Part shown: positions 3,650 to 29,532 of the stretch, in pieces | Numbering within the stretch: position 1 is the first letter of the stretch | Layout: the number at the start of each line of letters is the position of its first letter | DNA from: Candidatus Electrothrix sp. GW3-4 | Lineage (GTDB): Bacteria; Desulfobacterota; Desulfobulbia; Desulfobulbales; Desulfobulbaceae | Assembly: GCF_037902255.1 (NCBI RefSeq) | Contig: NZ_CP147990.1 | Coordinates: forward strand, 4,230,001-4,262,000 | Reading direction: 5' to 3' | Length of the DNA stretch: 32,000 nt | Notes under the pieces: model-generated | The model's database searches: none | The model's input: only the letters and a program-made list of their open reading frames with translations | What the model was told of the DNA's origin: nothing | Made by a program: the position numbers and the translations under genes

Positions 3650-3695
3650 GAGAGAGGAGCTTAAGCTGTTTTAATCACAACAGCTCAAGCGGTGA
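3650..3695 (-). repeat. Repeat 'B' copy 1: 12-bp-stem hairpin (arms 3659-3670 / 3679-3690) followed on the minus strand by CCUCUCUC
   Basis: Minus strand reads gcttgagctgtt-gtgattaa-aacagcttaagc. The only non-Watson-Crick pair is G-U on the minus strand (A-C on plus). It matches 4501-4547 at about 83% and lies 45 nt downstream of the DUF3047 stop. Confidence 0.7.
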
Positions 3696-4500: not shown

Positions 4501-4547
4501 CGGAGAGGGGCTTGAGCTATTTTAAACCACAACAGCTCAAGCAGTGA
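4501..4547 (-). repeat. Repeat 'B' copy 2: hairpin (arms 4510-4521 / 4531-4542) followed on the minus strand by CCCUCUCC
   Basis: Minus strand reads gcttgagctgtt-gtggtttaa-aatagctcaagc. The single non-Watson-Crick pair is again G-U on the minus strand only, at a different stem position than in copy 1. Confidence 0.7.
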
Positions 4548-4625
4548 GAGAAGCCAGAGTGTCAGCGTGGTTATCGCAAGGCGTTTGTTCGATTTGATTG
4601 TTTGAATCATTGCTCCGTGCTTGTT

Positions 4626-4672
4626 TTTTTCACCACCTGATGAACATCACCGAGGCATCATGTTCTATTGGG
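4626..4672. repeat. 47-bp repeat 'A' copy 2 (palindrome variant TTCACCA-CC-TGATGAA, 4629-4644)
   Basis: tttttcaccacctgatgaacatcaccgaggcatcatgttctattggg is a direct repeat of 2238-2284. It lies 70 bp downstream of the stop of the 4743..5015 gene. Confidence 0.8.
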
Positions 4673-5038: not shown

Positions 5039-5488
5039 TTAAATTTTTCCTAAAAAATATGTTACTGTAGAAGCAAATATAGCAGAAAAAATTGCAATTA
5101 AAAAAGTGAATCGTTTCTCAAATTTTTTGCTTCTATCTTCATTTAAATATAAGTATCCTTTGCCAGTCAGGGAATACAAATGATCACTCAATTTTTCTTT
5201 ACAGCTCCAGGTCACACCTTTGTATGTTGCTTTATAATCACCACTTGATGTGGCAAATAGTTTCCATGCAAGTACCTGCAATTTAAGTGAAGTATATTCT
5301 GGATTTTTATCCGGCTCATCTTTTTTTACTAATGAGTCTTCAACTAATCCTTGAGTTATAAGAGAGGCAAAAGGGTAAAAATCTCTATGATCACCGTATA
5401 TTTTCGGTAACAAAGAAGAAATAACTGAAAGTTTCACTTCCCCTTCTTTTTCTATTTTTTTCAAAATTTTTAATGAAAGATCAATCAT
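5039..5488 (-). CDS. Hypothetical protein with a C-terminal transmembrane helix
   Basis: The track ORF starts at TTG 5491. ATG at 5488, preceded by GAGGA, is the more likely start. The C-terminus FTFLIAIFSAIFASTVTYFLG is a TM helix. AT-rich. Confidence 0.5.
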   Translation of the reverse strand: MIDLSLKILKKIEKEGEVKLSVISSLLPKIYGDHRDFYPFASLITQGLVEDSLVKKDEPDKNPEYTSLKLQVLAWKLFATSSGDYKATYKGVTWSCKEKLSDHLYSLTGKGYLYLNEDRSKKFEKRFTFLIAIFSAIFASTVTYFLGKI

Positions 5489-5557
5489 CAAGTCCTCGAG
5501 GCAGTTTTTATAACCAACCTACCAACAGAAAGAAACGCCCCGTTGGCAGGTTATAAT

Positions 5558-5767
5558 ACCACATTCAACGCTTTCAACGAGATATTTCAAGCGTAAAATA
5601 TCCCATTCGATGCTTACAACGTGACGTTTGATGTTTAAAACGAGGCATTCGAAGCTTCATATGAGGCATTTGAAGCTTAAAACGAGGCATTCAAAGCTTC
5701 ATATGAGGCGTTTGAAGTTTAAAACGTGGCATTCAAAGCTTCATATGAGGCATTTCATCTCGGCAAC
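5558..5767. repeat. Array 1: ten strictly phased 21-bp tandem units, with a core of three 42-bp repeats at 5642-5767
   Basis: Units start at 5558, 5579, 5600, 5621, 5642, 5663, 5684, 5705, 5726 and 5747. The core is GAGGCATT(C/T)(G/A)AAGCTT with alternating spacers CATAT and AAAAC. There are no indels across 210 bp. Confidence 0.9.
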
Positions 5768-5825
5768 AGGGGAAGAAAAAGAAGAAATGGGAGAGAGGAA
5801 CTATATAATATAGTTAAGAAAAAGA

Positions 5826-5924
5826 TCAAAGCAGCTTCCCGTTAATCTCCCCGGCCAACTCCTCCGGCGTTTTCCCCTCTGTATCCAAGACCAGATCCGA
5901 ACCAACCCGATAGAGCGGCTCCCG
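5826..5924 (-). pseudogene. Displaced duplicate of the aroK 3' end (last ~33 codons plus stop); left direct repeat of the inserted cassette
   Basis: 5838-5924 matches 7683-7769 with 4 mismatches in 87. It translates in frame to REPLYRVGSDLVLDTEGKTPEELAGEINGKLL*, against aroK's REPLYRAGSDLVLDTEGKTPEELAGEINGRL*. There is no upstream kinase domain. Confidence 0.85.
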
Positions 5925-5943
5925 CTTCGCCACAGCAGGGGGT

Positions 5944-6495
5944 TTACAGCAGATGACGTATTCGAGTGAATTCTTCACAAGCCGCAACCAGCGAGTCAGG
6001 TGGTGATTCAAGCTCAATATTTTTTCTGCACGTATCCGCAAGGCTGTCGATAAAGGGGTGAGCATCTTTTCGTTCCGAGAGAGCACCATATTTGTTTTTA
6101 TAGATATTTTTCTCCTCCTCATTAATAAGCTCCCCTGCAAGGTACGCTATCCATGTTTCAATATGCCACTTGGGTATAATGTAGGCTATCGGCTCTGCTT
6201 CGTCTCTCGGTGGCAAAAGTTTTGCTGCCAACTCAGTCCTGACCTGCTCAACAGAGAACTCATCAGCATCCTGAATCACCAACAGGATCGTCGCGGCATG
6301 TCGAGATCGGCACGCTTTGGCTTCTTCAGAAAATTTTTCCAGCACAAATTTTTTACCTGATCCCTTACCACCTGGATAAGGAACCACTCTGATTGTACGA
6401 GGTTTTACCCCCCACCCCTTTTTCAGGAAACGGGTTACAAATATTTCATGGGCCCTGTCTTCACAGAGAATAATAATTTGCGATGCCTTACTCAT
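5944..6495 (-). CDS. Small TOPRIM-like protein (DUF4276/DUF4435/RloB-type), partner of the upstream ATPase
   Basis: 183 aa. IIILCEDRAHEIFV (beta-strand plus acidic residue), LLVIQDADEF (DxD) and IPKWHIETWI follow the order of TOPRIM-like catalytic elements. Its start overlaps the ATPase stop by 8 nt (ATGAGTAA). Confidence 0.65.
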   Translation of the reverse strand: MSKASQIIILCEDRAHEIFVTRFLKKGWGVKPRTIRVVPYPGGKGSGKKFVLEKFSEEAKACRSRHAATILLVIQDADEFSVEQVRTELAAKLLPPRDEAEPIAYIIPKWHIETWIAYLAGELINEEEKNIYKNKYGALSERKDAHPFIDSLADTCRKNIELESPPDSLVAACEEFTRIRHLL

Positions 6496-7597
6496 TTTCC
6501 CATCCCCGAGCCATTACCTCAGCCGGAGGCAGATCGGCTACTTGAGGAAACTGATCAACAACAACATGCGCCCCTTCCTGACGAGAGAACCAAAGCTCTG
6601 TTCCCCGTGCCATCTTGTTGATAATTTCAGGATGATGAGAGGTGATGAGAGCCTGTTTGTCGTGTTCATCACAGATATCGTTAAGATTTTCAAGCCAAGG
6701 CTGAATTTCGCGTATAGAAATAAAGTTGTCCGGCTCATCAATCAGCACGGTCGAAAAAATTCCGGCCCGCAGAGCCTCCAAAATCGTGTAGAGAACAATC
6801 AACTGTCGCTGCCCGTCAGAAATATTTGAGAAGGAGAACTCATAGTCCTTACCTTCAATGCGGAATGTTGCTGTTAATTTTCGTGATTCACCCGCCTCTC
6901 TAAGGCTCAACTGTTCAAACCCAGGGAGAACGTCCTCTAAAAGTTCTTTTGCCTTATAACTGACAGCGGGTTCTTCCTGCAGGAGATGGCGATACCACTG
7001 GGAAAAATTTTCAGTATGTTTAGAAAGGTTACGCGACTCAGCAACAGCTGCGTCCTGTACAAGTAAGGGAACAGGATGAATCAGCAGAATCTTCTCCAAT
7101 TCCTCTCTAAACATGATTAATGGTTTATTATCATCACGTTGAGCAACTGTAGGGATGACTGATCGTTCCCAATTCGCCGGAAAAACAGCACCCTCTTCCG
7201 GTTTTTCTGTCTTCCAGTTGATACGATAGAGATGTGCCTCCTGCCCCTCGAACAAGAAAAAGGGAGAACCGTTCCAGATGAGTTGTTCTCGTTTAATACG
7301 CTGCTTCTCTTCATGATCGGCATATTCAATCGTCAAGCTGTACTTATATACCTCATTGTTTACTTTCAGAGAAAATGCTATGCTCTGCTCACGCCTTGTA
7401 TTCCAGGTTGTCAGGCTGTTTCTGTTGAAGATATCGTTCACATGCTCGCCTCGCATCAATCGTTGAACGCTGCGTAATGCATCCAGCACAGAAGTTTTGC
7501 CCGACCCATTCTCTCCAAGCCAGAGTTGAAATTCCCCTGGTTTGATTCGAAAATTTGTCAAAGAACGAAAGTTGTCAATATAGATTTCTGTTATCAT
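6488..7597 (-). CDS. SMC/ABC-type ATPase (AAA_15/AAA_21-like)
   Basis: I place the start at MITEIYIDNFRSL (ATG 7597). The 170 extra N-terminal residues in the track ORF read into the GC-rich aroK region. Motifs: Walker A GENGSGKTS, signature-like SDGQRQL, Walker B VLIDEPDNF, H-loop ITSHHP. About 369 aa. Confidence 0.85.
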   Translation of the reverse strand: MITEIYIDNFRSLTNFRIKPGEFQLWLGENGSGKTSVLDALRSVQRLMRGEHVNDIFNRNSLTTWNTRREQSIAFSLKVNNEVYKYSLTIEYADHEEKQRIKREQLIWNGSPFFLFEGQEAHLYRINWKTEKPEEGAVFPANWERSVIPTVAQRDDNKPLIMFREELEKILLIHPVPLLVQDAAVAESRNLSKHTENFSQWYRHLLQEEPAVSYKAKELLEDVLPGFEQLSLREAGESRKLTATFRIEGKDYEFSFSNISDGQRQLIVLYTILEALRAGIFSTVLIDEPDNFISIREIQPWLENLNDICDEHDKQALITSHHPEIINKMARGTELWFSRQEGAHVVVDQFPQVADLPPAEVMARGWENE

Positions 7598-7673: not shown

Positions 7674-8351
7674 TCAAAGCCGCCCGTTAATCTCCCCGGC
7701 CAACTCCTCCGGCGTTTTCCCCTCTGTATCCAGAACCAGATCCGAACCCGCCCGATAGAGCGGCTCCCGTTCCTCCAGGATGGCAGAGACCTCCTGAGCC
7801 GGGTTTTCCCAACCTTCCTGCTTGTCCAAGGCAGGGCGTTGCTCGGCCGTCTTCTGATCCAAGGCCAGCCGGGCCAGGGTCGTGGCGAGATCCGTGCGCA
7901 GCCAGACCACAAAGGCATCTCGGCGCAGCTCTTCCCACGCATCTTGGTGCAGAATAGCTCCACCGCCGGTGGCGATGATGGTTTCCTGCCAGGAAGACAG
8001 TTCCTTGAGCAGGGTTCGCTCCTGTCCACGAAAATATGGCCATCCCTGTTGGCTGACGGCATCTGCAATAGAGCAGCCCATACGCTGGTAGAGCTCCTGA
8101 TCCGTGTCAAGAAAGCGAAAACCGGTTAAGCGGGCCAGGGCCTGACCCACAGCGGTCTTGCCCGTGGCCCGAAACCCGGTCAGGACGATGCGCTCAGGAA
8201 GTCCTTGCTGCTCCCCTGCGCCCTTCTTTCTCGCCAACCCATCCCCTGACCTGCTTTTTTTTGTTGCCCTACCTTGCACCTTATTCACAAACTCCTTATG
8301 TTTTGAGGTTGATTTTTCCCTTTTCCTCCTGCCGCAGGTACTGTATGACAT
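7674..8351 (-). CDS. aroK: Shikimate kinase
   Basis: IVLTGFRATGKTAVGQALA (P-loop), FLDTDQEL and ATGGGAIL. The start is uncertain. ATG 8351 gives a 45-aa Lys/Arg-rich extension. In-frame TTG 8237, with AGGGGA upstream, gives a typical ~188-aa protein. The last ~33 codons (7683-7769) form the right direct repeat of the cassette. Confidence 0.8.
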   Translation of the reverse strand: MSYSTCGRRKREKSTSKHKEFVNKVQGRATKKSRSGDGLARKKGAGEQQGLPERIVLTGFRATGKTAVGQALARLTGFRFLDTDQELYQRMGCSIADAVSQQGWPYFRGQERTLLKELSSWQETIIATGGGAILHQDAWEELRRDAFVVWLRTDLATTLARLALDQKTAEQRPALDKQEGWENPAQEVSAILEEREPLYRAGSDLVLDTEGKTPEELAGEINGRL

Positions 8352-8454
8352 ACGGCATAAATTTTCATCCCTCAATGATATCCCATGAAAAAAACTATGA
8401 CCTTGCTCCCTGATCGAAAAGCGGGGGCAAACAAGACCGCTGCGGAGAAGTTCC

Positions 8455-9783
8455 TTGGTTGCGGATAATCTTTTTGCCCTGATTGGCCAGCTCCATTTCC
8501 CTTCCCTGATCATCGGCATGGGCCTGACCGCCCTGGCTATGCTGTCTCTGTTGTTGCTGGTCTGGAACCGACTCCAGCGCGAGAACCTCCTGCTTTCCCT
8601 GCAACTGGAGCAGACCGGCGAGGATGCCCGCCGCTTTGAACAGGAGGCGGAAGAACTGCGGCGGGAGCGGGAGAGCCTGCGGCAGCAGAAGGAAGAGGCG
8701 GAGCGGGATAATATCGGCCTGGAGGCCTTTCTTCACGAGACCCGGGCCATTGCCGGTGAGCGCCAGCAATTCCTCGCCCAAAGCAAGCAGCAGCTGGCAG
8801 AGGATTTTTACAATCTCTCCCGCAAGGTCATGGCCGAGCAGGGGAGGGTCCTGCAGGAGCAGCATGCCGGGGGACTGGAACATCTCCTCTCACCGGTGCG
8901 CAATCAGTTGGATGCCTTTCGTCAGAAGGTGGAGGATGTCTACGAGCGGGAATCCCGCGATCGCCTCTCTCTGAGCAAGGAGGTGGAACATCTCAGGCTG
9001 TTGAACGAGCGGCTCAGTCAGGAGGCGGTGGAGTTGACCCGGGCCTTGCAGGGGACCAATAAATTGCAGGGGCAATGGGGGGAGATGGTCCTGGAGCGGC
9101 TCCTGGAGGAATCGGGTCTCCGACCGGGCAGCGAGTTTGCCACCCAGGTCTCGCTGCGGGATGAGCAGGGGCGTCTCAAACAGCCGGACGTGATCGTTTA
9201 TCTTCCTGAAAAAAGGGCCGTGATCATTGATGCCAAGATGTCCCTGAACAGCTATGTGGCAGCAGGTCGGAGCGATGATGAACAGGAGCGGGAGCAGCAT
9301 CTGGGCAATCATATCAATTCCATTCAACAGCATGTCAAGGGCCTGAGCAAAAAGCAGTACCACGATCTCCCGGAGCTCACCACCCTGGATTTTGTCCTCC
9401 TCTTTATCCCGGTGGAAGGGGCCTTTCAGGCAGCGGTGAGCAGGAAACCGGAGCTGCTCACCCAGGCCCTTCGGCGGCGGGTGATGATTGCCTCGCCCTC
9501 AACCCTGCTGGCCATCCTCCGCACCATCCATCATATCTGGCGGATGGATGAGCAGAACCGCAACAGCCTGATCATTGCCCAGGAGGCAGGCAAGCTCTAT
9601 GATAAGTTTGTTGGTTTCACCGAGGCCTTTAGCGAGGTCGGAACCCGCCTGGATCAGGCCCACCAGAGCTGGCAATTAGCAGAAAAACGTTTGAGCACAG
9701 GCAAAGGTAATCTCATAGACCGGGCTGAGGCCCTGCGACAGCTCGGGGTGCAGCCGAGCAAGGATCTGGCAAAGGAACGATGA
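8455..9783 (+). CDS. rmuC: DNA recombination protein RmuC
   Basis: 442 aa: N-terminal TM helix, long coiled coil, then an RmuC nuclease-like core (PDVIVYLPEKRAVIIDAKMSL, LLFIPVEGAF). The start is TTG 8455 or ATG 8518. Confidence 0.9.
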   Translation: MVADNLFALIGQLHFPSLIIGMGLTALAMLSLLLLVWNRLQRENLLLSLQLEQTGEDARRFEQEAEELRRERESLRQQKEEAERDNIGLEAFLHETRAIAGERQQFLAQSKQQLAEDFYNLSRKVMAEQGRVLQEQHAGGLEHLLSPVRNQLDAFRQKVEDVYERESRDRLSLSKEVEHLRLLNERLSQEAVELTRALQGTNKLQGQWGEMVLERLLEESGLRPGSEFATQVSLRDEQGRLKQPDVIVYLPEKRAVIIDAKMSLNSYVAAGRSDDEQEREQHLGNHINSIQQHVKGLSKKQYHDLPELTTLDFVLLFIPVEGAFQAAVSRKPELLTQALRRRVMIASPSTLLAILRTIHHIWRMDEQNRNSLIIAQEAGKLYDKFVGFTEAFSEVGTRLDQAHQSWQLAEKRLSTGKGNLIDRAEALRQLGVQPSKDLAKER

Positions 9784-19940: not shown

Positions 19941-19967
19941 AGTACCCAAGCAGAGCTTGGGTACCAG
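19941..19967 (+). repeat. REP-like single hairpin (right-hand unit only)
   Basis: agtacccaagcagagcttgggtaccag: 9-bp stem tacccaagc/gcttgggta with a 3-nt loop. It is identical in core to the right hairpin of the composite elements below. Confidence 0.8.
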
Positions 19968-19983
19968 TAAATAGTTACCTTAA

Positions 19984-20664
19984 TTATTTCATAGCTCTGC
20001 TAACCGGATTAAATCCCTTTGCAAAAAGCCAAATGGGCAATAGAAGGAGTTCAAACAAAGCACCAGGCACATATAGAATACCCCCTGTCCCTGTAGTATC
20101 AATTATCCCAAGAAGATCAAGAGGAGCACTTACAAATACCAACGTATACCCAAAAACACCTACCACGGAAATTATTCGGGGAATCAAACGTGTTTTGTAG
20201 AGTAAACAACAGAGTATCATGCTGGCAATACTTAGAATAATCATTGCCATCTGATAGCCAATATATCTGGCTTCCACAGCAACATTGGCTAAAATATGGA
20301 AGTAGGACGAGTCTGGGGAACCTGCCTTTATAAATTCCTGACTTAAAGTTAAAAGAAGAAAATAAACAATAGCTCCAATAAGAAGGAGTAAACATTCCAT
20401 TACTCTTGAACATACATAGGTAATTGCAATTATTCTACTATGCTTTTCCATGATTGGATAAAAGAGAACCGCAATACCAACAACTCCGAGAGACATGAAT
20501 AAAATTGAGAATGCTCCAATGTAAAATTGAGCTTCATTTGCATAATAATCAGAAAGAGATGCTTGGAGAATTGGTGCTACTGTGTAAGCGTCAATCATCC
20601 CAAAAATCATTGTGATGATGAACAATGCTCCCACAGCTTTTGCTATCTTATTTTCTGTACTCAT
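19984..20664 (-). CDS. DUF4386-like multi-pass membrane protein
   Basis: 226 aa with about 6 TM helices. The N-terminal KAVGALFIITMIFGM pattern resembles DUF4386. Confidence 0.6.
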   Translation of the reverse strand: MSTENKIAKAVGALFIITMIFGMIDAYTVAPILQASLSDYYANEAQFYIGAFSILFMSLGVVGIAVLFYPIMEKHSRIIAITYVCSRVMECLLLLIGAIVYFLLLTLSQEFIKAGSPDSSYFHILANVAVEARYIGYQMAMIILSIASMILCCLLYKTRLIPRIISVVGVFGYTLVFVSAPLDLLGIIDTTGTGGILYVPGALFELLLLPIWLFAKGFNPVSRAMK

Positions 20665-20700
20665 GCCTTTTCCTTTTTTTGCATAACGACTTGTTATCTC

Positions 20701-21096
20701 TTAATTTCTATAAGTATCTATATCAATACTTGCCTTAACTTTGTACAAAAACTCAATAACATCATCTTCAAAACCAATGATAGGTGTTGATTTTGTTTCG
20801 TCTGTAGTGATCCAGAGCACCACCTGTAAGTAAGCTTCAAGGTTGAATTTCTGTTTTGCTTCTATAATTTCTTTTGTATGGGGTTTTATGGTTTTTATAA
20901 GCGAAGAGGACATTTTGTAAATATCGACTATTTCCCCTTTCACTGTATCAGATGATAAATTCCAGTAAGATTTCTTGGGGATAGGATTGGCCTTTTTCTT
21001 GGCTTTCGATGGATTAATTCCGAGGAATTCAGTTAATTCTTTTGGGTCAAAATCATCGCCTATCAATCCAAAGTAAACTCTTCCTTCATTGCTCAT
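20701..21096 (-). CDS. DUF4279-like protein
   Basis: 131 aa. FGLIGDDFDPKELTEFLGINPSKA matches the DUF4279 N-terminal signature as I recall it. Confidence 0.6.
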   Translation of the reverse strand: MSNEGRVYFGLIGDDFDPKELTEFLGINPSKAKKKANPIPKKSYWNLSSDTVKGEIVDIYKMSSSLIKTIKPHTKEIIEAKQKFNLEAYLQVVLWITTDETKSTPIIGFEDDVIEFLYKVKASIDIDTYRN

Positions 21097-21110
21097 TATT
21101 TTATTTTTTT

Positions 21111-21220
21111 TTCCTGATTCCCAGGCTCCAGCTTGGGAATCCTTATTCCTGAAGCTTTGCTTCCCTTATGAAGCGGAGCTTCACGGCGTTAGTACCCAAG
21201 CAGAGCTTGGGCACCAGCAA
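21111..21220 (+). repeat. Composite REP/BIME-like element (three hairpins)
   Basis: ttcctgattcccaggctccagcttgggaat...gaagctttgcttcccttatgaagcggagcttcacggcgttagtacccaagcagagcttgggcaccagcaa. Confidence 0.9.
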
Positions 21221-21270
21221 AATCTCCATGCTATGGCAACAGTAGTTTGTGCCTTTGGTTGATATTACGG

Positions 21271-21792
21271 CTAAACACTTTCTAGTTTTTTCCCTAATGA
21301 TGGAGAATAAATAGTATAAACTTTCTGTTTCACTTCATTATCGTAGCTCAATCCGGCTCTTATATCATAAGGTGCAATAAGTTCCTTAAAAGCGGACTCA
21401 ATATTCTCAATGCCCCATTCAGTATCAATGTATCTGCACGGGAATTCTGAATGCGGATTTGGTGTATGTAAATATACAGCATCGTCATAACCATTTTTTT
21501 CATAGAGGCAGAGCCAAATCTGAAAAGGTATTTCCAGCAGATTTGTCTCATGAACGATCCGATGAAACATAGCGAAAAGTGCTTGTATATGCTTTCTTCT
21601 GTTTTTCCAACTCTTATTCGATGATCCGTTCTGATCAATATGACTATGCCAGTAATTAAACCAATGATCTGGTTCTGCTATGATTGAAAAGTTCTCGGCT
21701 TTGCTCATAAGCTGCCTGTAATATCTCCCCAGACCTCTAACTTTTCTTTTAGGCAAGAGGCTGGGAGTAATTTTGAAGAGTTCTTGATTCAT
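21271..21792 (-). CDS. Hypothetical protein
   Basis: 173-aa ORF flanked by REP-like elements on both sides. No motif recognised. Confidence 0.55.
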   Translation of the reverse strand: MNQELFKITPSLLPKRKVRGLGRYYRQLMSKAENFSIIAEPDHWFNYWHSHIDQNGSSNKSWKNRRKHIQALFAMFHRIVHETNLLEIPFQIWLCLYEKNGYDDAVYLHTPNPHSEFPCRYIDTEWGIENIESAFKELIAPYDIRAGLSYDNEVKQKVYTIYSPSLGKKLESV

Positions 21793-21817
21793 ATTTTAAT
21801 ACTCCCATCAGACGTTT

Positions 21818-21951
21818 GTTTCCTGGTTTCCTTTCCTAGTTTTCCTAGTTCCCAAGCTCCAGCTTGGGAACCCTTGTTCCTGAAGCTCTGCTTCCCCTAT
21901 GAAGCCGAGCTTCACGGCGTTAGTACCCAAGCAGAGCTTGGGCACCAGCAA
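21818..21951 (+). repeat. Composite REP/BIME-like element (full length, with extra tttcct(g/a)gtt mini-repeats at the left end)
   Basis: Hairpin 1 is ttcccaagct-cc-agcttgggaa. The central hairpin is gaagctc-t-gcttc-ccctat-gaagc-c-gagcttc. Hairpin 3 is gtacccaagc-aga-gcttgggcac, followed by cagcaa. Confidence 0.9.
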
Positions 21952-21990
21952 TCCAGTAAAAGAAGCTCCGAGTCTTTATTCCATTTCCTT

Positions 21991-22524
21991 TCACCATTGA
22001 CAAACCACCTCAATCAATCCCGGCTTCCCGGCATAATTGACCGCACTGGAATACCGCCAATGCTCGGCAGCCTCAACATATCCTCGTTTCACCGGATTCT
22101 GGTGGATATACTCCAGTTTCTGCCGCATTACAGCCTCGTTTTCAATGTATTGCGGGTGAAAACCCTCTTCCCATACCTGATATTCGGATTCCCGCTTATG
22201 GTGTCGTTTGAAAAGAGCGAACAGATGCAGCAGTCGCTCCGCTTTGACCTCATGCAGATGGTCGATAATCTTTCGGGCTGTATATGATTTAAAGCGTTGC
22301 ATATCTTTGCTCAGATTCGGTGACTGTGCTATCAGGTGAAGATGGTTTTCCAGAATAATATAACCGTACAGCCTGAAATTGTGTTTTTCCTGCAAATATT
22401 GCCAGCTATCAAGGACGATCTGTACTGTTTCCGGTCGAGTGAAGACCGGGAGCCAGTTGTTCACAGTTGAAGTCATGAAATACGGAGCGTCAGGCGAGAA
22501 GATATGGTATCGGCTGCGCGGCAT
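21991..22524 (-). CDS. REP-associated tyrosine transposase (RAYT; IS200/IS605-like Y1 HUH transposase)
   Basis: I place the start at MPRSRYH (ATG 22524) with AGGAGG 5 nt upstream. The track's extra 56 residues are a translation of the REP element. HUH motif ENHLHLI and catalytic Tyr region LEYIHQNPVKRGYV. REP-like elements flank it on both sides. Confidence 0.85.
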   Translation of the reverse strand: MPRSRYHIFSPDAPYFMTSTVNNWLPVFTRPETVQIVLDSWQYLQEKHNFRLYGYIILENHLHLIAQSPNLSKDMQRFKSYTARKIIDHLHEVKAERLLHLFALFKRHHKRESEYQVWEEGFHPQYIENEAVMRQKLEYIHQNPVKRGYVEAAEHWRYSSAVNYAGKPGLIEVVCQW

Positions 22525-22545
22525 TTCATCCTCCTGTATTTCTTT

Positions 22546-22587
22546 TTCTGGTTTCTGGTTCCCAAGCTCCAGCTTGGGCACCAGCAA
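22546..22587 (+). repeat. Short REP-like element (left arm of hairpin 1 fused to right arm of hairpin 3)
   Basis: ttctggtttctggttcccaagctccagcttgggcaccagcaa. The central ~65 bp of the composite element are missing. Confidence 0.85.
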
Positions 22588-22612
22588 AAATGTGCTCCGC
22601 TTAAAACCTTCG

Positions 22613-23008
22613 TTAGTCCTTGTAATACTGCTTAAATTCATCTGAAGGATCACGGTCTGAGTAGATATAAACGGAGTTCCCGATAGGATCAATTACAGAA
22701 AACCCTCTGTCCCCCCAAGGGTGGTCTTCCAATGGCATTGCTGCTTGCAGACCTGCTTCTGTCAATCTGGAATGTTCTGCATCAACATCATCAACCTTGA
22801 AATTGAGCATTACGCCCGCACCTCCAAATACTGGCATATTTTCTTGTGGTTGCATAAATTGAATCGTTGGACCGCCTTCACCGATGCGCAGATTGACATA
22901 CCAGCCACAATCAAAAATAGCTTTTGCCGAGAAATGCTGTTCATAGAATTCTCGACACGCATCTACATCTTTTGTACAGAAACATGTTGATAGCTCATTT
23001 GTCTTCAT
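22613..23008 (-). CDS. VOC/glyoxalase/bleomycin-resistance family protein
   Basis: 131 aa. Typical VOC pattern (DVDACREFYEQHF..., FKVDDVDAEHSRL, PWGDRGFSVIDPIGN). Confidence 0.8.
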   Translation of the reverse strand: MKTNELSTCFCTKDVDACREFYEQHFSAKAIFDCGWYVNLRIGEGGPTIQFMQPQENMPVFGGAGVMLNFKVDDVDAEHSRLTEAGLQAAMPLEDHPWGDRGFSVIDPIGNSVYIYSDRDPSDEFKQYYKD

Positions 23009-23079
23009 AGTGTCTCCTTTATTGGGCTAACAGTGTTGATAAGTGGAAATTTCCATCCGGTTGACAGCAACCGCTTCAA

Positions 23080-23934
23080 TCACACCACCGCAACAGCAAA
23101 AAACTCCACCCCGTGTCGATCTGCCCCCTTGATCAATTCCGGTGCCTCTCTCCAGCCATGCTGCTGTAGAAACGATGCAAGCTCTTCAGGCCGGATACTC
23201 CATAACCACGGCTCGCCGACAACTTTCTGCAACCAAAGCATCAGCCCTGTCCATCGCCCGACGTATGGCCGACCATCTTCGCCGCTGGGAATGTAGGAAA
23301 AGGCGATGCGCGATCCCTGACCGACACTTGCCGCGCATTGCCTGAACAAGGATTGCACAGCTTCTGTCGGTAAGTACATGACAAGCCCTTCGGCAAGGAT
23401 AACGCTTTGCGCCGTTACGTCCCAATTCGCATTTGTTCTCAGCACATCAGACAGTTCCCTCTCACCCAAATCCTCAGCGATCAGGTGAAGGTTCTCACTT
23501 GCTCCTAACGCCTCAACCCCTTTCTGTTTCAGAGCAGATGTGGCCGGATGATCAATCTCGAAAAAACGTACCCCCGAAAACTCCGGTGCCAATCGACAAC
23601 ACAGGGTATCGTATCCTGCTCCGAGGACAAGAATCTGGGTCGCTCCGCTACTGATACTGTCCCGTACCTGCTGTTCACAGAACGCCTTGCGAAAGGCGAA
23701 GGCCTCAAACTGGCCCGGCAGCATCCAGTCAAAGGCTTCATACACAGCAATCATTCTGGGAGAGCGGGCCAACCGGACTGTCCTTTCCCCGGCAGCACCT
23801 GATGCAACAAGTAATTGTGCAGTGGCATCAACAATCCCGTGTGGAAGAACCGTGTCCATTCCGGGTTGTGAGCCGAGAGTGACAATGTTCAGGGCGACCT
23901 TGCGGGCCGTCATGCTCGGTTTGTTTTTATCCAT
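23080..23934 (-). CDS. SAM-dependent O-methyltransferase, LCMT/TcmP-like (COG3315 type)
   Basis: QILVLGAGYDT motif in a 284-aa GC-rich gene. Confidence 0.8.
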   Translation of the reverse strand: MDKNKPSMTARKVALNIVTLGSQPGMDTVLPHGIVDATAQLLVASGAAGERTVRLARSPRMIAVYEAFDWMLPGQFEAFAFRKAFCEQQVRDSISSGATQILVLGAGYDTLCCRLAPEFSGVRFFEIDHPATSALKQKGVEALGASENLHLIAEDLGERELSDVLRTNANWDVTAQSVILAEGLVMYLPTEAVQSLFRQCAASVGQGSRIAFSYIPSGEDGRPYVGRWTGLMLWLQKVVGEPWLWSIRPEELASFLQQHGWREAPELIKGADRHGVEFFAVAVV

Positions 23935-24763
23935 TGTTATTCTTGTTGAATCTTATTTTGACAAGTTTCACCATGTTTCTGAATTTCGGAGAAAGACGAA
24001 CAAGCAGTCTGACGAATATTTTTTGCCTGTTTTTATGATAGTCAAACATATTCCATTCATCTTCTACGATGATATCAGAATGTAATAATTTCAAATCGTC
24101 TGTATCGGAAATACCCCAGGTGAAGCTGATATCTTTGTTTTTCGCTTTGTTCTTAACATGATAGTTCACCAGTTTGGTATGGAATACTTCACAAATCATT
24201 ATAGATGAAGGAAAATTATTGTTTATTTCCCGCAGCAAATTTTTTATTTCATCTTCATGAAGATACATCAAGAGTCCTTCAGCAATAAACAGATAATTAT
24301 ACGAAGCATCTTTTTCGATATCATCAATCCATGAATAATCAAGAACTGACTTTCCTATAGATGTATGTTTCTCCGTATCGCTATAGAATTTCCTTCTGAA
24401 TTCAATAGCCTCATGCAGATCAATATCGTACCAAAATTTAATTTTATCCGAATTCATTCGACTAAAACGGGTATCCAAACCTGCACCGAGATTCACTATC
24501 ACAGGGTTTTCCGTCTTATTTATAAATTCAACAATCTGACTGTCCAATATTTTTGTCCTGACCGAGACTAAAAATTGTCCACTCGTATTCTTGTTGAAAT
24601 AAGAAAAGTCATGATCAAGCAAGTCTATCATTTCAACCGCTTTTGTATCGGTGATGATTGCGTCTGAACGCAAGGTCTCGGAGGCTTTAAAATAAAGCGG
24701 AGCAAACATGGATTCAAATATCGGATTTTTATCAATCAAATCTTGAGGATTAATTTTGTTCAT
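23927..24763 (-). CDS. SAM-dependent O-methyltransferase, LCMT/TcmP-like (second, AT-rich copy)
   Basis: VIVNLGAGLDTRFSRM motif in a 278-aa gene. Its stop overlaps the downstream methyltransferase start by 8 nt (ATGGATAA). Confidence 0.8.
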   Translation of the reverse strand: MNKINPQDLIDKNPIFESMFAPLYFKASETLRSDAIITDTKAVEMIDLLDHDFSYFNKNTSGQFLVSVRTKILDSQIVEFINKTENPVIVNLGAGLDTRFSRMNSDKIKFWYDIDLHEAIEFRRKFYSDTEKHTSIGKSVLDYSWIDDIEKDASYNYLFIAEGLLMYLHEDEIKNLLREINNNFPSSIMICEVFHTKLVNYHVKNKAKNKDISFTWGISDTDDLKLLHSDIIVEDEWNMFDYHKNRQKIFVRLLVRLSPKFRNMVKLVKIRFNKNNNG

Positions 24764-24827
24764 AGGACGCTCTTTTTGAGGTGTATACGTGATACTGTGT
24801 CAGTCTGAAAAAGAATACGGAACCAGA

Positions 24828-25394
24828 TTATCTGATAATTTTTACGATCTCCGCTTCCTTTCTCTTGGGCACAGGAGGAATATTTTCCGGGTAGCCTAGG
24901 ATGATCGGAGCCACAATGGTGCAGTTGTCCGGTATCGCCAGTTCCCTGAGCATCTCCGGGTCATGTATCTCGGTGCCGAGGTTCACCCAGCATGTTCCCA
25001 GACCTCTGGAGCTTGCCGCCAGCATGAAATAACCGGCTGCCAGGGCACAATCGACAGAGAGATTCTTTAGATGAGAAAGTCCGAGAATCATCACCAGACA
25101 CGGTGCGTTGTAGAAGACATTGAACGATTCATTCTCCAGCATCCCTTGGTATTTCTTGGCATAATCATCGGGATTGGCGGCAATGCGGGCCAGGATGTTT
25201 TTCTTGCTCTCGTCCGAGATTTTCTGCAGCATCTCTCTGTTGTTGACGATGATAAATTTCCACGGCTGCTCATTACCAGCATTCGGGGCAAGCGTGCTTT
25301 CCCTGATCATCTCTTGGATAAGCTCGACCGCAACAGGTTTGTCCTGGTATTTTCTTACGGAGCGTCGGTTTTTTAATAGTTCTTCATAGGTCAT
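24828..25394 (-). CDS. Nitroreductase family protein
   Basis: I place the start at MTYEELLKNRRSVRKY (ATG 25394, AGAGG upstream). Motifs: RRSVRKY, PNAGNEQPWKF and a C-terminal GYP region. Confidence 0.85.
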   Translation of the reverse strand: MTYEELLKNRRSVRKYQDKPVAVELIQEMIRESTLAPNAGNEQPWKFIIVNNREMLQKISDESKKNILARIAANPDDYAKKYQGMLENESFNVFYNAPCLVMILGLSHLKNLSVDCALAAGYFMLAASSRGLGTCWVNLGTEIHDPEMLRELAIPDNCTIVAPIILGYPENIPPVPKRKEAEIVKIIR

Positions 25395-25440
25395 TGCGTT
25401 GTCTACCTCTCTGTTACATTCGTTTACTAACAACTTTTGC

Positions 25441-25692
25441 ACGTCTGAATGCTCCGTTCAAACGTGTAAATACAGTGTTCAGACATATAAAAGCTCTCAA
25501 GATACGTTTGAATCCTCTTGTTCAACATGCAAATGCTTCAAACATACGTTTGTTTACTCTTGAGCAACGTGTAAACGCTATGTTCAAACATGTAAATGCT
25601 CCTGACAGACGAGTGAACAGAGCTTTTGCTTGTTTGAAAGCTTCTGACATATGTTTGTTTGCTCTTGAGCAACGTGTAAATATTTACTGATT
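25441..25692. repeat. Array 2: twelve strictly phased 21-bp units with a 105-bp (5-unit) higher-order periodicity
   Basis: Units start every 21 bp from 25441 with no indel. Consensus is ACGTnT(G/A)AAtnCT.... Unit 6 (acgtttgtttactcttgagca) is close to unit 11 (atgtttgtttgctcttgagca), and units 2, 7 and 12 all begin acgtgtaaa. Confidence 0.9.
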
Positions 25693-25707
25693 CCCAAGCA
25701 GGAAGTA

Positions 25708-26952
25708 TCATGCCTGTTGAACGCTTATTTTTCTGCTCTCATTTTTCATCAGCACAGAACCTGCCATAATGCAGAGAGATATCAGCAAGGAAAGAGAGCA
25801 GGATACTGTAATGCCGTGCCAACCATAGGAAAGCCAGACCGGTCCTAAAAGGATTGATGAGAGACTCCCGCCTCCGATGCAAAATAAAATGTACAGCGAA
25901 GAGGCACTGCCGATTGATTCTCGCGGTACACGTTGACCTATGAGCAGAAACACTGTGGGCTGGCAGGAATAGACGCTCAGAAAAAGCAGCAACAGACCAA
26001 CCACAGTCAAGAAAATTGATTGAAACCATCCCATAAGCTGGAAAGACAGCAAGGACACAACTAAGCTGGGAAATATAATCTTCAACACGCCTGTTTTCTG
26101 GGAAATGCTTCCAGCAAAAGGGGCAATGACAGCGGTAATTCCTGCAAAGCTTATCCAGCCTATTTCACCTGATGAGAAATGAAAAGGCGGGGCAAGCAGC
26201 CTATAAGTCAAGAAGGTAACCATACCGAGAAATCCAAAATAGAGGGTGAATCCAACCAGCAGTAACGATAATATTTCTGATTTGAGCATGAGGCGCATTG
26301 CATTTTTATACAGCTCGGATAAGCGTGTGTTGTTTCCGGTCTGCGTATTTTTCTTCTCAACAAGTAAAAGCTGTGTGACCGCTGAGAGGAAAAGGAGAAC
26401 AGCTGAAACAATCCGAAAGGAGATTTGCCAGCCCACGGCTTCTGTCAATATTCCCATGAAAACTCTGCCAAAAATGACGCCCAATGTTCCAGATGCAACG
26501 ATAAGCCCAACATACACCCCGATTTTATTTCTAGGAGAAATTCTGGCTACGTGAGGAAACATTGATGCCGGGATCAATGCCGCGCAAATTCCCATCAATG
26601 CCATAGCGAGTATAAATAGGCCGAAATTCGGAGTATACGATGCACCGATAACTGTCATAGCCAGAAGCACCAGCCCGGTAACTGCGATTTTGGGCAGGTT
26701 GAATTTATCGGCAGCCGGACCGAGAAAGAAAAATGCAGCAGCATAACTCAATGAAATGATACTGAATGAGAAACGCGCCTGCGTAACATCAATACTGAAC
26801 GAGGTCGCAAGTTCTGAGAATATTGACTGCGTCATAAAAACCGTTGAAACTGCAAGCAGGTTAATTGTACAGGCAATCAATATCTTGAGCAGTTCAGCAG
26901 CAGTACCGCTTTCAGCTACTCTTTCCTGAAGTGATTGTGACAATGCTCTCAT
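25708..26952 (-). CDS. MFS transporter
   Basis: 414 aa with about 12 TM helices. MFS-like loop motif GPAADKFNLPK between TM2 and TM3. Confidence 0.85.
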   Translation of the reverse strand: MRALSQSLQERVAESGTAAELLKILIACTINLLAVSTVFMTQSIFSELATSFSIDVTQARFSFSIISLSYAAAFFFLGPAADKFNLPKIAVTGLVLLAMTVIGASYTPNFGLFILAMALMGICAALIPASMFPHVARISPRNKIGVYVGLIVASGTLGVIFGRVFMGILTEAVGWQISFRIVSAVLLFLSAVTQLLLVEKKNTQTGNNTRLSELYKNAMRLMLKSEILSLLLVGFTLYFGFLGMVTFLTYRLLAPPFHFSSGEIGWISFAGITAVIAPFAGSISQKTGVLKIIFPSLVVSLLSFQLMGWFQSIFLTVVGLLLLFLSVYSCQPTVFLLIGQRVPRESIGSASSLYILFCIGGGSLSSILLGPVWLSYGWHGITVSCSLSLLISLCIMAGSVLMKNESRKISVQQA

Positions 26953-26984
26953 GGTTTCAAGTCTCTATTTGCAACTACAAAAAG

Positions 26985-27805
26985 TTAAAACAATTTTCCA
27001 TTTTTACTATGCTGCATGATCAATTTTCTGAACATCTCCACCATGCCCCTGCCCAAGGCATAAATCACTTCGGGGTCTATGTTTTTCGAGGCCGCTGTAT
27101 CAAAGAAAATATTCAATTTGGATTCAAACGGTTCTTCCGGTTCCCAGTAACTGATCAAAAAGGTATCCCAGGGAGCGGATATAAAAGAAGTGAACGATCA
27201 GCACTGTTTGTTCCCTGGAGTTCTTTGGCCTCGAATAATTCGAGTAACTCAAAAAACAACGCATTATGCGTGTCTGCTAAACGGCACATCTCCTGTTCGC
27301 AGCGGTGTGAAAAAAAATTCTCCCATTCCTTGGCCCCGGTTATGTCTCTGAAAGGTATCCATACACCGGCTTCATCCTCTGTTCTGTTGCTGACCAGATA
27401 TTTAAGAACCGGTCCATATACCCAATTATTTATATGGCATTCCGAACTCATCATGCCCTGCTCATCAATCCAAAACTCCTTGCCAAGACACCGAACCCCG
27501 ACGCGGTTTTCTTTAACCGGAAGATCATGTTCACTCGCAATATCCCTGAGACCTTTCTCGACAACCTGCTGTCTCAGCGTATCAAGTTCTTTTTCACCCT
27601 GTTCATTTGATAACTTCTTATGGACAATGCCACCGGAAAGCAGAGTGATTGTTTCTTCTGCGAGCTGTGGGCAATCTCTAAGCTGTTTCTGCCCCTGAAT
27701 GACCGCGACAGCAAAGGCCATGCAGGAGGGTAAGAGGCATTGACGGCAGTTCGACTGCTCAAGATGCTTGTACAGGTCCAAGGGGTTGCTGATTGATGAC
27801 ATCAA
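26985..27805 (-). pseudogene. DUF3786 protein with an N-terminal Fe-S (RACo-type C-x2-C-x4-C...C) domain, interrupted by a frameshift at a T5 run
   Basis: The ORF 27155..27805 (NCRQCLLPSCMAFA...C) ends at ...YPLPGIPF-TGA. The -1 frame continues as LISYWEPEEPFESKLNIFFDTAASKNIDPEVIYALGRGMVEMF... to TAA at 26985. One extra T in the CCTTTTTGA run (plus-strand A-run 27157-27161) would fuse the two frames. Confidence 0.7.
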
Positions 27806-27829
27806 TACGTTCTCCGCAGAATAAAAATG

Positions 27830-27895
27830 TTCCTGGTTTTCTGGCTCCTACACACCGGCTTGGGAACCCCTGTTCTTGAAGCTCTGCTTGCTTGG
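27830..27895 (+). repeat. Degenerate REP/BIME-like element
   Basis: ttcctggttttctggctcctacacaccggcttgggaacccctgttcttgaagctctgcttgcttgg keeps the left flank, the right arm of hairpin 1 and the start of the central hairpin. Confidence 0.65.
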
Positions 27896-28180
27896 TTACA
27901 GAGATTCTTTCTCCATTTCTTTTGCAAGCATCCGTTCTTTGAGAGATGGCCCTCCAGAAAAAACAAAGACGTTCAAAGCATGAAAAAACACCCCAATGCC
28001 CCAACCAATGAGCGGCCAAATGAACCAAAAATGTTCGGGAGCTGTGCTTACATTAATAACTATAAGCAAAATATTTACAGCGATGTAGACAGCGAGATGA
28101 ATGTACAATCCAAACTTTGCCTCTGCTCTTTTTTTAGCCCTTTGATAAGCTTCCTGATTTTCCATAATCTCTTTCTCCAA
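27896..28180 (-). CDS. 2TM-domain protein
   Basis: 94 aa. KFGLYIHLAVYIAVNILLIVIN...WFIWPLIGWGIGVFFHAL fits the 2TM domain pattern. Confidence 0.65.
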   Translation of the reverse strand: MEKEIMENQEAYQRAKKRAEAKFGLYIHLAVYIAVNILLIVINVSTAPEHFWFIWPLIGWGIGVFFHALNVFVFSGGPSLKERMLAKEMEKESL

Positions 28181-28183
28181 AAA

Positions 28184-28729
28184 CTATTCTCTCCAGTGCT
28201 GAGGCTCATTGAGAACCTCTGAACATTGAACTGTCCCTGAATGTCTTTTCAAGACATCATCGCGTAACTCTTGAACCATCCACGCTTCTGCGTGCTCTTC
28301 CGGTATAGGATATGGTGCGTCAAAACCTTGTGCTCCAGCAGGGATAAAACCGCAACGTGGATAGTAGGTCGGGTGACCAAGAACAAAAACCAACTCTGTT
28401 CCAGCTTCTTCAAGCAATCGTAAGCCTTCGTTAATGAGTTCTTCCCCAATGCCTTTCTTTTGTTTATCCGGTAGGATGGCTAATGGTGCCAAGATTTGAG
28501 CAGAGAGTATTTTTTCTGCTTTTGTAACGACAACTTTTGTGAATAAAACATGACCAACGAGTTTGTTGTTCTCAACAGCTACTAATGACAAGAGTGGCAT
28601 TGCTGTTTCGTCATCAAATAAGTCATCAACAAGTTTGGCAATCTCAGCCCCTTTGTCATTACCAAATGCACGGTTGTGGATATTCAGTATTTCTTTACGC
28701 TCTGGTTCTGTAGATTTTCTTATTTTCAA
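28184..28729 (-). CDS. GNAT N-acetyltransferase (YhbS/COG3153-like)
   Basis: TTG start with AGGA 7 nt upstream. QKKGIGEELINEG and LGHPTYYPRCGF. Confidence 0.85.
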   Translation of the reverse strand: MKIRKSTEPERKEILNIHNRAFGNDKGAEIAKLVDDLFDDETAMPLLSLVAVENNKLVGHVLFTKVVVTKAEKILSAQILAPLAILPDKQKKGIGEELINEGLRLLEEAGTELVFVLGHPTYYPRCGFIPAGAQGFDAPYPIPEEHAEAWMVQELRDDVLKRHSGTVQCSEVLNEPQHWRE

Positions 28730-28751
28730 GCTATATCCTTTTTATCAACGT

Positions 28752-28847
28752 TTGTTCTGGTTCCCAAGCTCCAGCTTGGGAATCCTTGCTCCTGAAGCTC
28801 TGCTTCCCCTATGAAGCGGAGCTTCACGGCGTTATGGGCACCAGCGA
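28752..28847 (+). repeat. Composite REP/BIME-like element with the left arm of hairpin 3 deleted
   Basis: ttgttctggttcccaagctccagcttgggaatcc...gaagcggagcttcacggcgtta-tgggcaccagcgac. Confidence 0.85.
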
Positions 28848-28953
28848 CAATCTTTGGTTGCTCAGTCTTCATGATTTTCCCTTTTGTTACGTATTGAGTT
28901 CATGATGTTTTTAGGATACCCTGTATGTCCTTTCTGAATTGATTGCTATGCAT

Positions 28954-29379
28954 CTAATCACCTCCGCATATGAGATGATTGACTGAAATTATGTTTTTCT
29001 CAGCATTGTATGTGAAGGACGCTCTAGCACCCAATATTATTATTGATTGATCTCTCCACTGCGGTGGAGATATGCACAATATTTCACCTTTCGAGTTATG
29101 TATTTTGCACCCCTGTTTTAGTGCAAACAGTACTTCGCTTATACATTCATGATTATTGCTGTAAACTTTTTCTATGCAGCCAATGCCCTCTTCGCCTGGG
29201 CCTAAGCCACACTTGGTGGTTTCAGTTTCGTACTTCTTCATTTGCTGCCAGTCGCGGCCCTGGAACTCATGAATGAATTGAGCATACCTCATGGTAAATT
29301 CACCTCTGTATTGAGGCGGGTTTTCTTTAGCTTGCAGCGTGAGTGGAAGAAGTATCACCACTAAAAGTAGTCTGAACAT
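28954..29379 (-). CDS. Secreted Cys-containing hypothetical protein
   Basis: 141 aa with signal peptide MFRLLLVVILLPLTLQA and 8 Cys. No family recognised. Confidence 0.55.
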   Translation of the reverse strand: MFRLLLVVILLPLTLQAKENPPQYRGEFTMRYAQFIHEFQGRDWQQMKKYETETTKCGLGPGEEGIGCIEKVYSNNHECISEVLFALKQGCKIHNSKGEILCISPPQWRDQSIIILGARASFTYNAEKNIISVNHLICGGD

Positions 29380-29421
29380 ATGTTCCTTTTATGCATAATT
29401 TCTCGCATTAGCGGCACATTG

Positions 29422-29532
29422 TTTTCCTGGTTCCCAAGCTCCAGCTTGGGAACATTGTTCCAGAAGCTCTGCTTCCCCTATGAAGCCGAGCTTCACGGCG
29501 TTAGTCCCCAAGCAGAGCTTGGGCACCAGCAA
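29422..29532 (+). repeat. Composite REP/BIME-like element (full length)
   Basis: ttttcctggttcccaagctccagcttgggaacattgttccagaagctctgcttcccctatgaagccgagcttcacggcgttagtccccaagcagagcttgggcaccagcaa. Confidence 0.9.

Follow-up and report, generated by a model that had tools for sequence, protein, structure and literature searches.

Iterons, such as those of R6K gamma (7 x 22 bp), P1 (19 bp) and lambda ori (four palindromic 19-mers), are organized into wrapped nucleoprotein complexes, and partition centromeres that double as operators, among them R1 parC, that of pSK41 (4 x 20 bp) and the omega heptads, are bound cooperatively. ArgR operators are made of 18-bp palindromic ARG boxes 3 bp apart, which gives a spacing of 21 bp, and are bound by an oligomer on one helix face. 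The repetitive extragenic palindromes (REPs) of bacterial interspersed mosaic elements (BIMEs) alternate in orientation, are variably spaced and are associated with RAYT transposases. Finally, small MerR/Xis-like proteins of the winged helix-turn-helix (wHTH) type polymerise on variable numbers of phased repeats, regulating transcription (BldC, PMC5859096; D29 Gp36, PMC12266134), and winged-helix filaments of the BldC/Xis/RDF (recombination directionality factor) type are described for BldC of Streptomyces (PMC5859096), D29 Gp36 (PMC12266134) and RdfS (PMC11963761). Here, we analyzed a stretch of 32,000 nucleotides from Candidatus Electrothrix sp. GW3-4 (contig NZ_CP147990.1, positions 4,230,001 to 4,262,000; the whole stretch is hereafter called the window), which carries a run of ten 21-bp units, named array 1. 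Array 1 belongs to a family of phased 21-bp arrays centered on AAGCnT, and its parts are the following:

5558–5767, plus strand: array 1, ten 21-bp units forming five 42-bp A/B super-units, with 0 indels
5625–5755, plus strand: the young core of array 1, three near-identical 42-bp copies, as delimited by Tandem Repeats Finder (TRF)
5537–5557, plus strand: a degenerate eleventh unit, with 10–13 of 21 matches to the other units, whose tail is the TATAAT at 5552–5557

An earlier note on this DNA had described ten units without an indel at 5558–5767, and both this description and its transcription of the sequence from 5537 to 5767 were confirmed. Two types of unit take turns, A (GAGGCATTCRAAGCTTCATAT) and B (GAGGCRTTTGAAGYTTAAAAC), which makes the true period 42 bp. 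In agreement with the center of three near-identical 42-bp copies claimed in that note, TRF reported 5625–5755 with a period of 42, 3.1 copies, 91% matches, 0% indels and a score of 220, while a second call covered 5642–5754 with a period of 21 and 5.4 copies. When the units were compared in the 21-bp register from 5558, central units of the same type had 19–20 of 21 bases in common and outer units 10–16, compared with 4–9 for the flanking 21-mers outside the array. Self-identity was 0.77 at a shift of 42 and 0.61 at a shift of 21, against a maximum of 0.39 in 300 shuffles over all shifts from 5 to 59. Within the 32-kb window, 21-bp periodicity was found in two regions only, array 1 and 25441–25692.

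Each unit of array 1 is an imperfect dyad with the center AAG-CTT, the ideal form being CATTCGAAG and CTTCGAATG on either side of the axis, followed by a 3-bp spacer. The arms read previously as a hairpin, AAGCTTCA and TGAAGCTT, are present; the GAGG proposed as its loop is not conserved across the family. Because it still matches the other units at 10–13 of 21 positions, 5537–5557 is taken as a decayed eleventh unit. The TATAAT at 5552–5557, which had been noted as pointing into the array, exists, and it is the decayed tail of that unit (GCTTAAAAT changed to GGTTATAAT); as the promoter scan called no promoter there, it was rejected as a promoter.

To look beyond the window, one genome per GTDB species was scanned for pairs of CRTTYRAAGYTT cores at a distance of 21 bp. 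This gave 86 loci, against a chance expectation of ~1–6 by our own calculation. Part of these loci were noise, either 7-bp microsatellites or coding heptads, and ~30 were true arrays, with 5–15 units in 21-bp register, found in Planctomycetota, Verrucomicrobiota, Bacteroidota, Gemmatimonadota, Zixibacteria, Hydrogenedentes, Myxococcota and cable bacteria. The arrays include:

Ca. Electronema: L005
Planctomycetota: L022, L049, L066, L072, L079 and L088
Spartobacteria: L009, L070 and L081
Bacteroidota/Ignavibacteria: L013, L021, L032, L058 and L060
Gemmatimonadota: L018, L023 and L042
Zixibacteria: L037
Hydrogenedentes: L030
Polyangium: L015

In several of these arrays, including the one of Ca. 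Electronema and those of Planctomycetota, the units are 54–66% alike and the phase is perfect. The A/B alternation of array 1 is seen in many members of the family, and the units of L035 and of the Zixibacteria array are identical to units of array 1 at 19–21 of 21 positions. A minisatellite, which had been listed among the candidate functions, is excluded by these homologous arrays, which in many phyla keep the 21-bp phase while their units diverge. A single chromosome can carry more than one array: this window has two, one Spartobacteria bin has three, and Planctomycetota bins have two each. The three arrays of the Spartobacteria bin are copies of one array with differing downstream genes, and ~100 bp of flanking sequence is kept on both sides at 80–92% identity; in that genome, the array and its flanks behave as a portable unit. 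A plasmid or phage origin of the arrays was rejected, since BLAST against 72,556 plasmids and 50,697 phages gave no match and, among 2.9 million viral contigs, the DNA pattern occurred in 2 and the fn3 gene described below in 1. A search of the literature by sequence and by description yielded no account of the array family in the library searched, which is not proof of novelty; arrays of strictly two-helical-turn repeats placed before genes in at least eight bacterial phyla apparently form an undescribed family.

At five of the loci derived from the pattern scan, the array lies just upstream of the gene for a conserved 202-aa protein with a helical domain at its N-terminus and an fn3 domain at its C-terminus. 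More than 1000 homologues of this protein were found, all unnamed (90%-identity clusters, protein search). Its AlphaFold model shows an N-terminal helical hairpin and the fn3 domain, and Foldseek returned fn3 matches only, an outcome that is uninformative as to whether the protein binds DNA. Further fn3 loci were picked by the protein and not by the DNA pattern. All four of those read by exact protein identity had a 21/42-bp array within ~100 bp of the ATG, with unit sequences that differed from one to another, and in 62 of the 69 metagenome fn3 loci with sufficient upstream sequence the strongest upstream period was 21 or 42 bp, among all periods tested from 5 to 59. The array ends ~30–120 bp before the fn3 start codon.

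In 19 loci, a 63-aa HTH_17 gene precedes the array, which begins at the HTH_17 stop codon. The distance from this stop codon to the fn3 ATG was 190, 232, 253 or 295 bp, values that differ by multiples of 21, and the copy number of the arrays changes by whole units. The conservation of phase that had been suggested for array 1 alone is in this way extended to homologous loci, where the 21-bp phase is kept. Measured from the center of the unit, the distance to the fn3 ATG was 5 mod 21 in 25 of 44 distinct loci and 4–6 in 32 of 44, and this register is kept although the GC-rich hairpins of the leaders differ in sequence.

The fn3 loci have other recurrent traits. A module comprising the 63-aa HTH_17 gene, the 21-bp array and the 202-aa fn3 gene recurs in L090–L176 (e.g., L090 5515–6609), and is often followed by genes for a secreted trypsin-like protease (30 loci), a Dam-like methylase (13) or a zf-CHC2 primase (8). 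Some loci show a tandem arrangement, fn3-array-fn3. In the fn3 leader, the GC hairpin is variable and a TAAGTY motif is found ~30 nt ahead of the ATG, and 7-bp microsatellites stand directly after the fn3 stop codon in L092 (1838–1976) and L093 (1478–1616), with GAAGGCT x12 and CAGACCC x7.

A profile hidden Markov model (HMM), built from the fn3-upstream arrays alone, matched the window only at 5543–5757, with E values of 1.6e-11 (plus strand) and 5.3e-10 (minus strand); 20 shuffled windows gave two matches, the best with an E value of 0.05. As the sole match of this model, array 1 is a bona fide member of the family of fn3-upstream arrays. A position weight matrix (PWM) scored it at 14.6 bits per unit on the plus strand and 13.0 on the minus strand. 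Array 1 has exact tandem units of 21 bp (42 bp as A/B pairs) in at least five copies, with no indel that breaks the phase, and its unit fits the family profile, with the conserved AAGCnT center and partly complementary arms.

On the sense strand of the fn3 gene, the pattern of the unit is G-C-arm(5)-(G/T)AAG:C(T/G/C)T-arm(5)-G, where the colon marks the center. The central frequencies are A.86, A.76, G.92, C.82 and T.87. The arms are wholly different between arrays, yet partly complementary: the arm pair (5,14) is T-A in 100 units and G-C in 72, and the pair (4,15) is T-A in 82 and A-T in 79. Over 120 distinct units, standard pairs occupy 67% of the cells, compared with 49% when the partners were shuffled and 25–46% when they were slid, and the covariation score of the arms is 0.48 against 0.22. 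Covariation on homologous arrays, which had been suggested as a check, was therefore found, in the form of a strand-symmetric dyad covariation between arrays. Approximately 3.2 of the 6 arm pairs (~54%) are Watson-Crick and the mismatches are mostly of the transversion type, while Watson-Crick plus G-U pairing is equal on both strands (0.672 sense vs 0.693 antisense). The arm substitution that had been read as G-U compatible on the plus strand only is thus not borne out family-wide, which weakens the proposal of a structured or decoy RNA, and the pairing pattern fits half-sites better than a selected RNA stem.

Searches for known RNAs and for coding capacity were carried out on the same sequences. 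Rfam gave no match at the gathering score on arrays or leaders, and at a relaxed E value, in the window and 11 family loci, only chance miRNA-like matches were obtained; a tRNA/tmRNA search found none. None of the reading frames stays open throughout all arrays: the best one is open in 19 of 35, and stops occur in frame +0 at 0.64 per unit. An assignment of array orientation from the PWM alone was abandoned, as differences below ~1.5 bits per unit could not be relied on at loci where the orientation is known, such as L072.

Equal dyads on both strands, together with the lack of an open frame and of an Rfam match, favor an array that acts at the DNA level over a hairpin RNA. A length of exactly 21 bp with unrelated arms, whole-unit indels, a kept register and symmetric dyads are all as expected of sites on one face of B-DNA, whereas RNA hairpins are harder to fit, because nothing requires a fixed length of them and because a preference for G.U on one strand would be expected among their mismatches. 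Our preferred interpretation, which falls somewhat short of an even chance, is that the array may be a phased protein-binding array, operator- or enhancer-like, serving as a multi-site docking platform. This is also the best supported of the functions in the earlier note, through the 62 of 69 periods, the whole-unit changes, the register and the symmetric dyads, while the iteron and centromere labels attached to it there fail, since rep and par genes are missing and there are several loci.

According to this interpretation, the tandem 21-bp dyads, in 5–15 copies of exactly two B-DNA turns each and placed a few tens of bases before a start codon, would be binding sites on one helix face. A dimeric or head-to-tail oligomerising DNA-binding protein would fill the units cooperatively, and the resulting nucleoprotein filament or wrap would set the transcription of the adjacent gene, with an output that could be tuned as whole units are gained or lost. 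The 63-aa HTH_17/Xis/BldC-like protein is a candidate binder at the loci that encode it beside the array.

By analogy, the array would work most like phased repeat operators and architectural sites, namely BldC/Xis arrays, iterons, parC-type centromeres and ArgR box pairs. With the sites of BldC/Xis proteins, which lie near promoters and are bound cooperatively by small wHTH proteins, it shares the variable numbers of short repeats, and in the 19 family loci mentioned above the 63-aa HTH_17 protein encoded immediately upstream of the array is of that type. Unlike the known BldC/Xis sites, however, which have 2–4 repeats spaced ~9–19 bp, the family has 5–15 contiguous 21-bp dyads, and no such protein is encoded in the window. 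The likeness to ArgR operators lies in the unit itself, a ~18-bp imperfect palindrome with a 3-bp spacer; the differences are that ARG boxes are paired whereas the family has runs of 5–15, that the sequence is not the same, and that no link to arginine genes exists.

Several points weigh against a protein-binding array. No binding protein was identified, and the HTH_17 open reading frame (ORF) is present neither in the window nor in any of the 86 pattern-derived loci. Moreover, the HTH_17 recognition helix is constant whatever the arm sequence and so cannot read the arms; for both reasons, the adjacent HTH_17 protein was rejected as a universal binder. At some loci, the genes on either side of the array run in one direction and are probably co-transcribed (HTH_17-fn3, and the cusB-like and cusA-like genes in L086), so that these arrays are probably present in RNA too. 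The asymmetric center AAGCGT is fixed in orientation relative to the fn3 gene (A,G 79 vs C,T 9), and the center of the unit, not the arms, is its best-conserved part, which HTH dimers do not usually show. The register could have been kept through shared ancestry of a conserved leader instead of through a helical-face constraint. As to array 1 itself, its sense strand runs into a displaced fragment of aroK (aroK'), where no gene starts, and the 149-aa gene on its other side has homologues elsewhere without arrays. The immediate surroundings are as follows:

5039–5488, minus strand: 149-aa gene, whose start is 70 bp from unit 5558, with no Pfam match
5516–5552, minus strand: 11-bp inverted repeat, AACCTACCAAC and GTTGGCAGGTT in plus-strand letters, between array 1 and the 149-aa gene
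5768–5832, plus strand: purine-rich 65-bp spacer, with the AT palindrome AACTATATAATATAGTT at 5799–5815 and TTAAGA at 5814–5819
5833–5932, minus strand: displaced copy of the aroK 3' end, 100 nt, a 91% direct repeat of 7678–7777
5944–7597, minus strand: two-gene cassette between the aroK repeats, with a 183-aa gene and a gene for a 369-aa AAA_21/HEC-01A-like ATPase

The minus-strand gene beside the array and the displaced aroK end had both been reported before, and both stand; the gene at 7674–8519, to which the second aroK repeat belongs, is the shikimate kinase. The 149-aa product has a hydrophobic C-terminal stretch, as seen by eye, and only 12 homologues. No 21-bp array or periodicity was present upstream of these homologues in the three other contexts checked, and the array was consequently rejected as a conserved partner of the gene. 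The inverted repeat at 5516–5552 has one A.C mismatch on the plus strand, which is a G.U pair on the minus strand; its stem is present in the minus-strand fold, and is followed by TATAAA-like and GAGGA motifs and then by the ATG at 5488. A comparable hairpin is found between the array and the ATG in fn3 leaders.

On the other side of the array, the AT palindrome and TTAAGA of the spacer loosely resemble the family leader, in a by-eye comparison with the fn3 leaders, and the spacer may be either a truncated leader of the family type or the 3' untranslated region of aroK'. A 16-nt purine-run match between the spacer and L072/L088 was dismissed as being of low complexity and in the wrong order.

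The two genes of the cassette are a candidate defence pair. In Ca. Electrothrix sp. Rat3, the cassette adjoins rsgA (L184 8184–9605), with 87% amino acid and 82% DNA identity, at a site without aroK, the array or the intervening genes; the cassette therefore moves between sites. The RsgA of the source genome is itself 87% identical to that of Rat3. The rsgA loci of Rat3 and of E. gigas are rearranged, neither aroK nor the array being present, and no array was found in ~40 kb from two related Electrothrix genomes. The segment that contains array 1 is accordingly recombination-prone and differs between Electrothrix genomes. Short-read assemblies probably also break at arrays of this kind: one end of the Logan contig L001 falls in the aroK repeat next to the array, and fn3 contigs mostly reach only 1–5 kb.

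The family sense strand of array 1 is the plus strand, as judged, weakly, by the profile score and by the near-identity to L035 and L037. In the family, the array stands 30–120 bp before a start codon, in the sense orientation and at ~5 mod 21, and array 1 departs from this arrangement. The start of the 149-aa gene is at a typical distance from it but on the other side, with a phase of 19 mod 21 by hand count. Since it points away from the sole nearby gene start, array 1 is possibly an orphaned copy; a rearrangement may have left it so, or the array may have an effect on the 149-aa gene whatever its orientation.

The most serious rival to a protein-binding array is one that acts as RNA, and it is so because the AAGCGT center is oriented and some of the arrays are likely to be present in RNA; all the same, we regard it as rather unlikely. 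In this case, 21-nt hairpins displaying an AAGCnU apex would form part of a 5' leader or of an intercistronic spacer, and their role would be mRNA stabilisation, titration of an RNA-binding protein, or a modulated termination or translation downstream. Covariation of the arms between arrays and the conserved apex are what such hairpins would show, and the co-directional arrangements (HTH_17-array-fn3 and L086) leave no obvious room for a separate promoter. The orientation of AAGCGT relative to the gene and the variable GC hairpin at a fixed position after the array in fn3 leaders also speak for RNA, as does the G.U pair that the inverted repeat at 5516–5552 forms on the minus strand only. The window region folds well on either strand (z of -4.8 and -5.7); good scores are trivial, because the repeats are palindromic. 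Yet there is no asymmetry between G.U and A.C on the two strands, Watson-Crick pairs occupy only ~54% of the arm positions with most mismatches of the transversion type, and a strict 21-nt length across unrelated stems is unneeded for hairpins. Together with the equal pairing on both strands, the lack of an Rfam match speaks against a known structured RNA family. As in the sponge RNAs CsrB/RsmZ, many short hairpin-like units are repeated in a non-coding stretch; unlike in these, no Rfam match, no strand-specific pairing signal and no evident promoter or terminator of its own were found. The GGA motifs for CsrA-type binding are absent from the core repeat units of the window on either strand, and a CsrA sponge was rejected on this ground.

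A selfish or neutral repeat, without host function, phased via unequal crossing-over and spreading with mobile DNA, so that the window copy would be a relic, is improbable. The three central 42-bp copies are 91% identical, suggesting recent amplification, the array segment varies between Electrothrix genomes, two related ones of which have no array in the ~40 kb examined, and the neighbors at other loci are often transposases, toxin-antitoxin or defence genes. Homogenisation alone, however, would not hold diverged units in register, and the outer units of array 1, like the arrays L005 and L088, are only 50–65% alike with both phase and core kept. In addition, conservation of the center motif and of the 21-bp length extends over phyla and over arms of unrelated sequence, and the arrays have a fixed position and register with respect to the fn3 ATG.

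We consider it very unlikely that the array serves an integrated plasmid-like or satellite element as iteron set or centromere, where a Rep or a ParR/ParG-type protein would bind to bring about replication or partition. The form would fit: like iterons, the units are contiguous, of about two helical turns (~21 bp), present in 5–15 copies and often placed before a gene start, and like partition centromeres, which precede the operon under their control, they make a phased repeat array upstream of genes. A zf-CHC2 primase, a Dam-like methylase or an excisionase-type HTH protein is encoded at some fn3 loci, and the array of the window abuts an att-like duplication of aroK. In contrast to iterons, the family is chromosomal, with several arrays per genome, and it is without a match in the plasmid and phage collections and nearly so in viral contigs. 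No rep, parA or parB/R gene stands beside the window array or in the clustered flanks. The neighbors of array 1 encode no Rep-like domain (a DNA unwinding element or DnaA box was not specifically searched for), and no parA/parM or parR/parG genes were found nearby with Pfam and PADLOC on the neighbors and by clustering of the flanks.

A decayed coding heptad repeat, at seven codons per unit of 21 bp, is effectively refuted: one plus-strand frame is indeed open over 6.5 units, within an ORF at 5628–5813 (61 aa, TTG start), and the variable positions of L005 are wobble-like (TTY GAR ... AAY), but the heptads are spurious, given that no frame is consistently open in all arrays (19 of 35 at best), that TAA occurs in the F-E frame of the window's B units, and that ORFs over arrays run on into junk sequence and have no Pfam match.

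The second region of 21-bp periodicity in the window is the following:

25441–25692, plus strand: second 21-bp phased array, ~12 units, consensus ACGTgTgAATgCTctt..aca

Its self-identity is 0.45 at a shift of 21 and 0.53 at a shift of 42, with a shuffle maximum of 0.39. It lies between the end of a gene for an MFS transporter (25708) and the start of a nitroreductase gene, and its core, CRTnTRAAWGCT, is related to that of array 1; the fn3-array HMM gave no match at 25441–25692. With this second array, the genome uses this kind of element more than once.

Repeats of other types also occur in the window. A Y1_Tnp/IS200-like (RAYT-like) gene at 21991–22692 is flanked by inverted copies of the palindrome GGTTCCCAAGCTCCAGCTTGGGAACC (21840–21872 and 22557–22589), and at least six related copies of 31–112 nt are scattered within 19941–29533, between small unrelated genes (DUF4386, DUF4279, two LCM, GNAT and DUF3786). 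These copies and the RAYT-like gene look like a REP/REPIN family with its transposase. The units of array 1 resemble REPs and BIMEs in being extragenic imperfect palindromes, clustered with alternating sub-types between genes; unlike them, they are arranged head-to-tail at exactly 21 bp, and the REP family of the window has a different sequence. No dispersed single array units were found above chance elsewhere in the window. The array also differs from a CRISPR, as its units are contiguous and there are no spacers, cas genes not having been specifically looked for. A 52-nt direct repeat (88%), at 2233–2284 and 4621–4672, brackets genes for a CNNM/CBS transporter and DUF3047, and a 27-nt repeat is found at 3669–3695 and 4521–4547. 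In Ca. Electrothrix gigas (L186 17834–18024), a 23-bp periodic array with the words GAGTCAC, GTGACTC and GAGACAC stands upstream of gatB, with no sequence relationship to the 21-bp family.

Returning to the phased protein-binding array, a wider claim can be made, which we put forward as possible, if on the doubtful side: the arrays would represent a previously unrecognised and very widespread cis-regulatory or architectural class, present in at least eight phyla and defined by the exact two-turn repeat and the AAGCnT core. In such a class, they would act as a copy-number-tunable switch before fn3 genes and accessory or defence genes, with two diverged examples in the window, and their reader would be a broadly distributed factor or a co-evolving family of factors. 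If the reading is true, 5–15 head-to-tail 21-bp dyads with an AAGCnT center mark an undescribed regulatory module, common to cable bacteria, Planctomycetota, Verrucomicrobiota, Bacteroidota, Gemmatimonadota, Zixibacteria and others, and tied to the fn3 family. It would also pose a testable question, namely, what reads an exact two-turn repeat whose arms vary freely, and would offer a handle on gene regulation and on mobile accessory genes in lineages that are almost without genetics.

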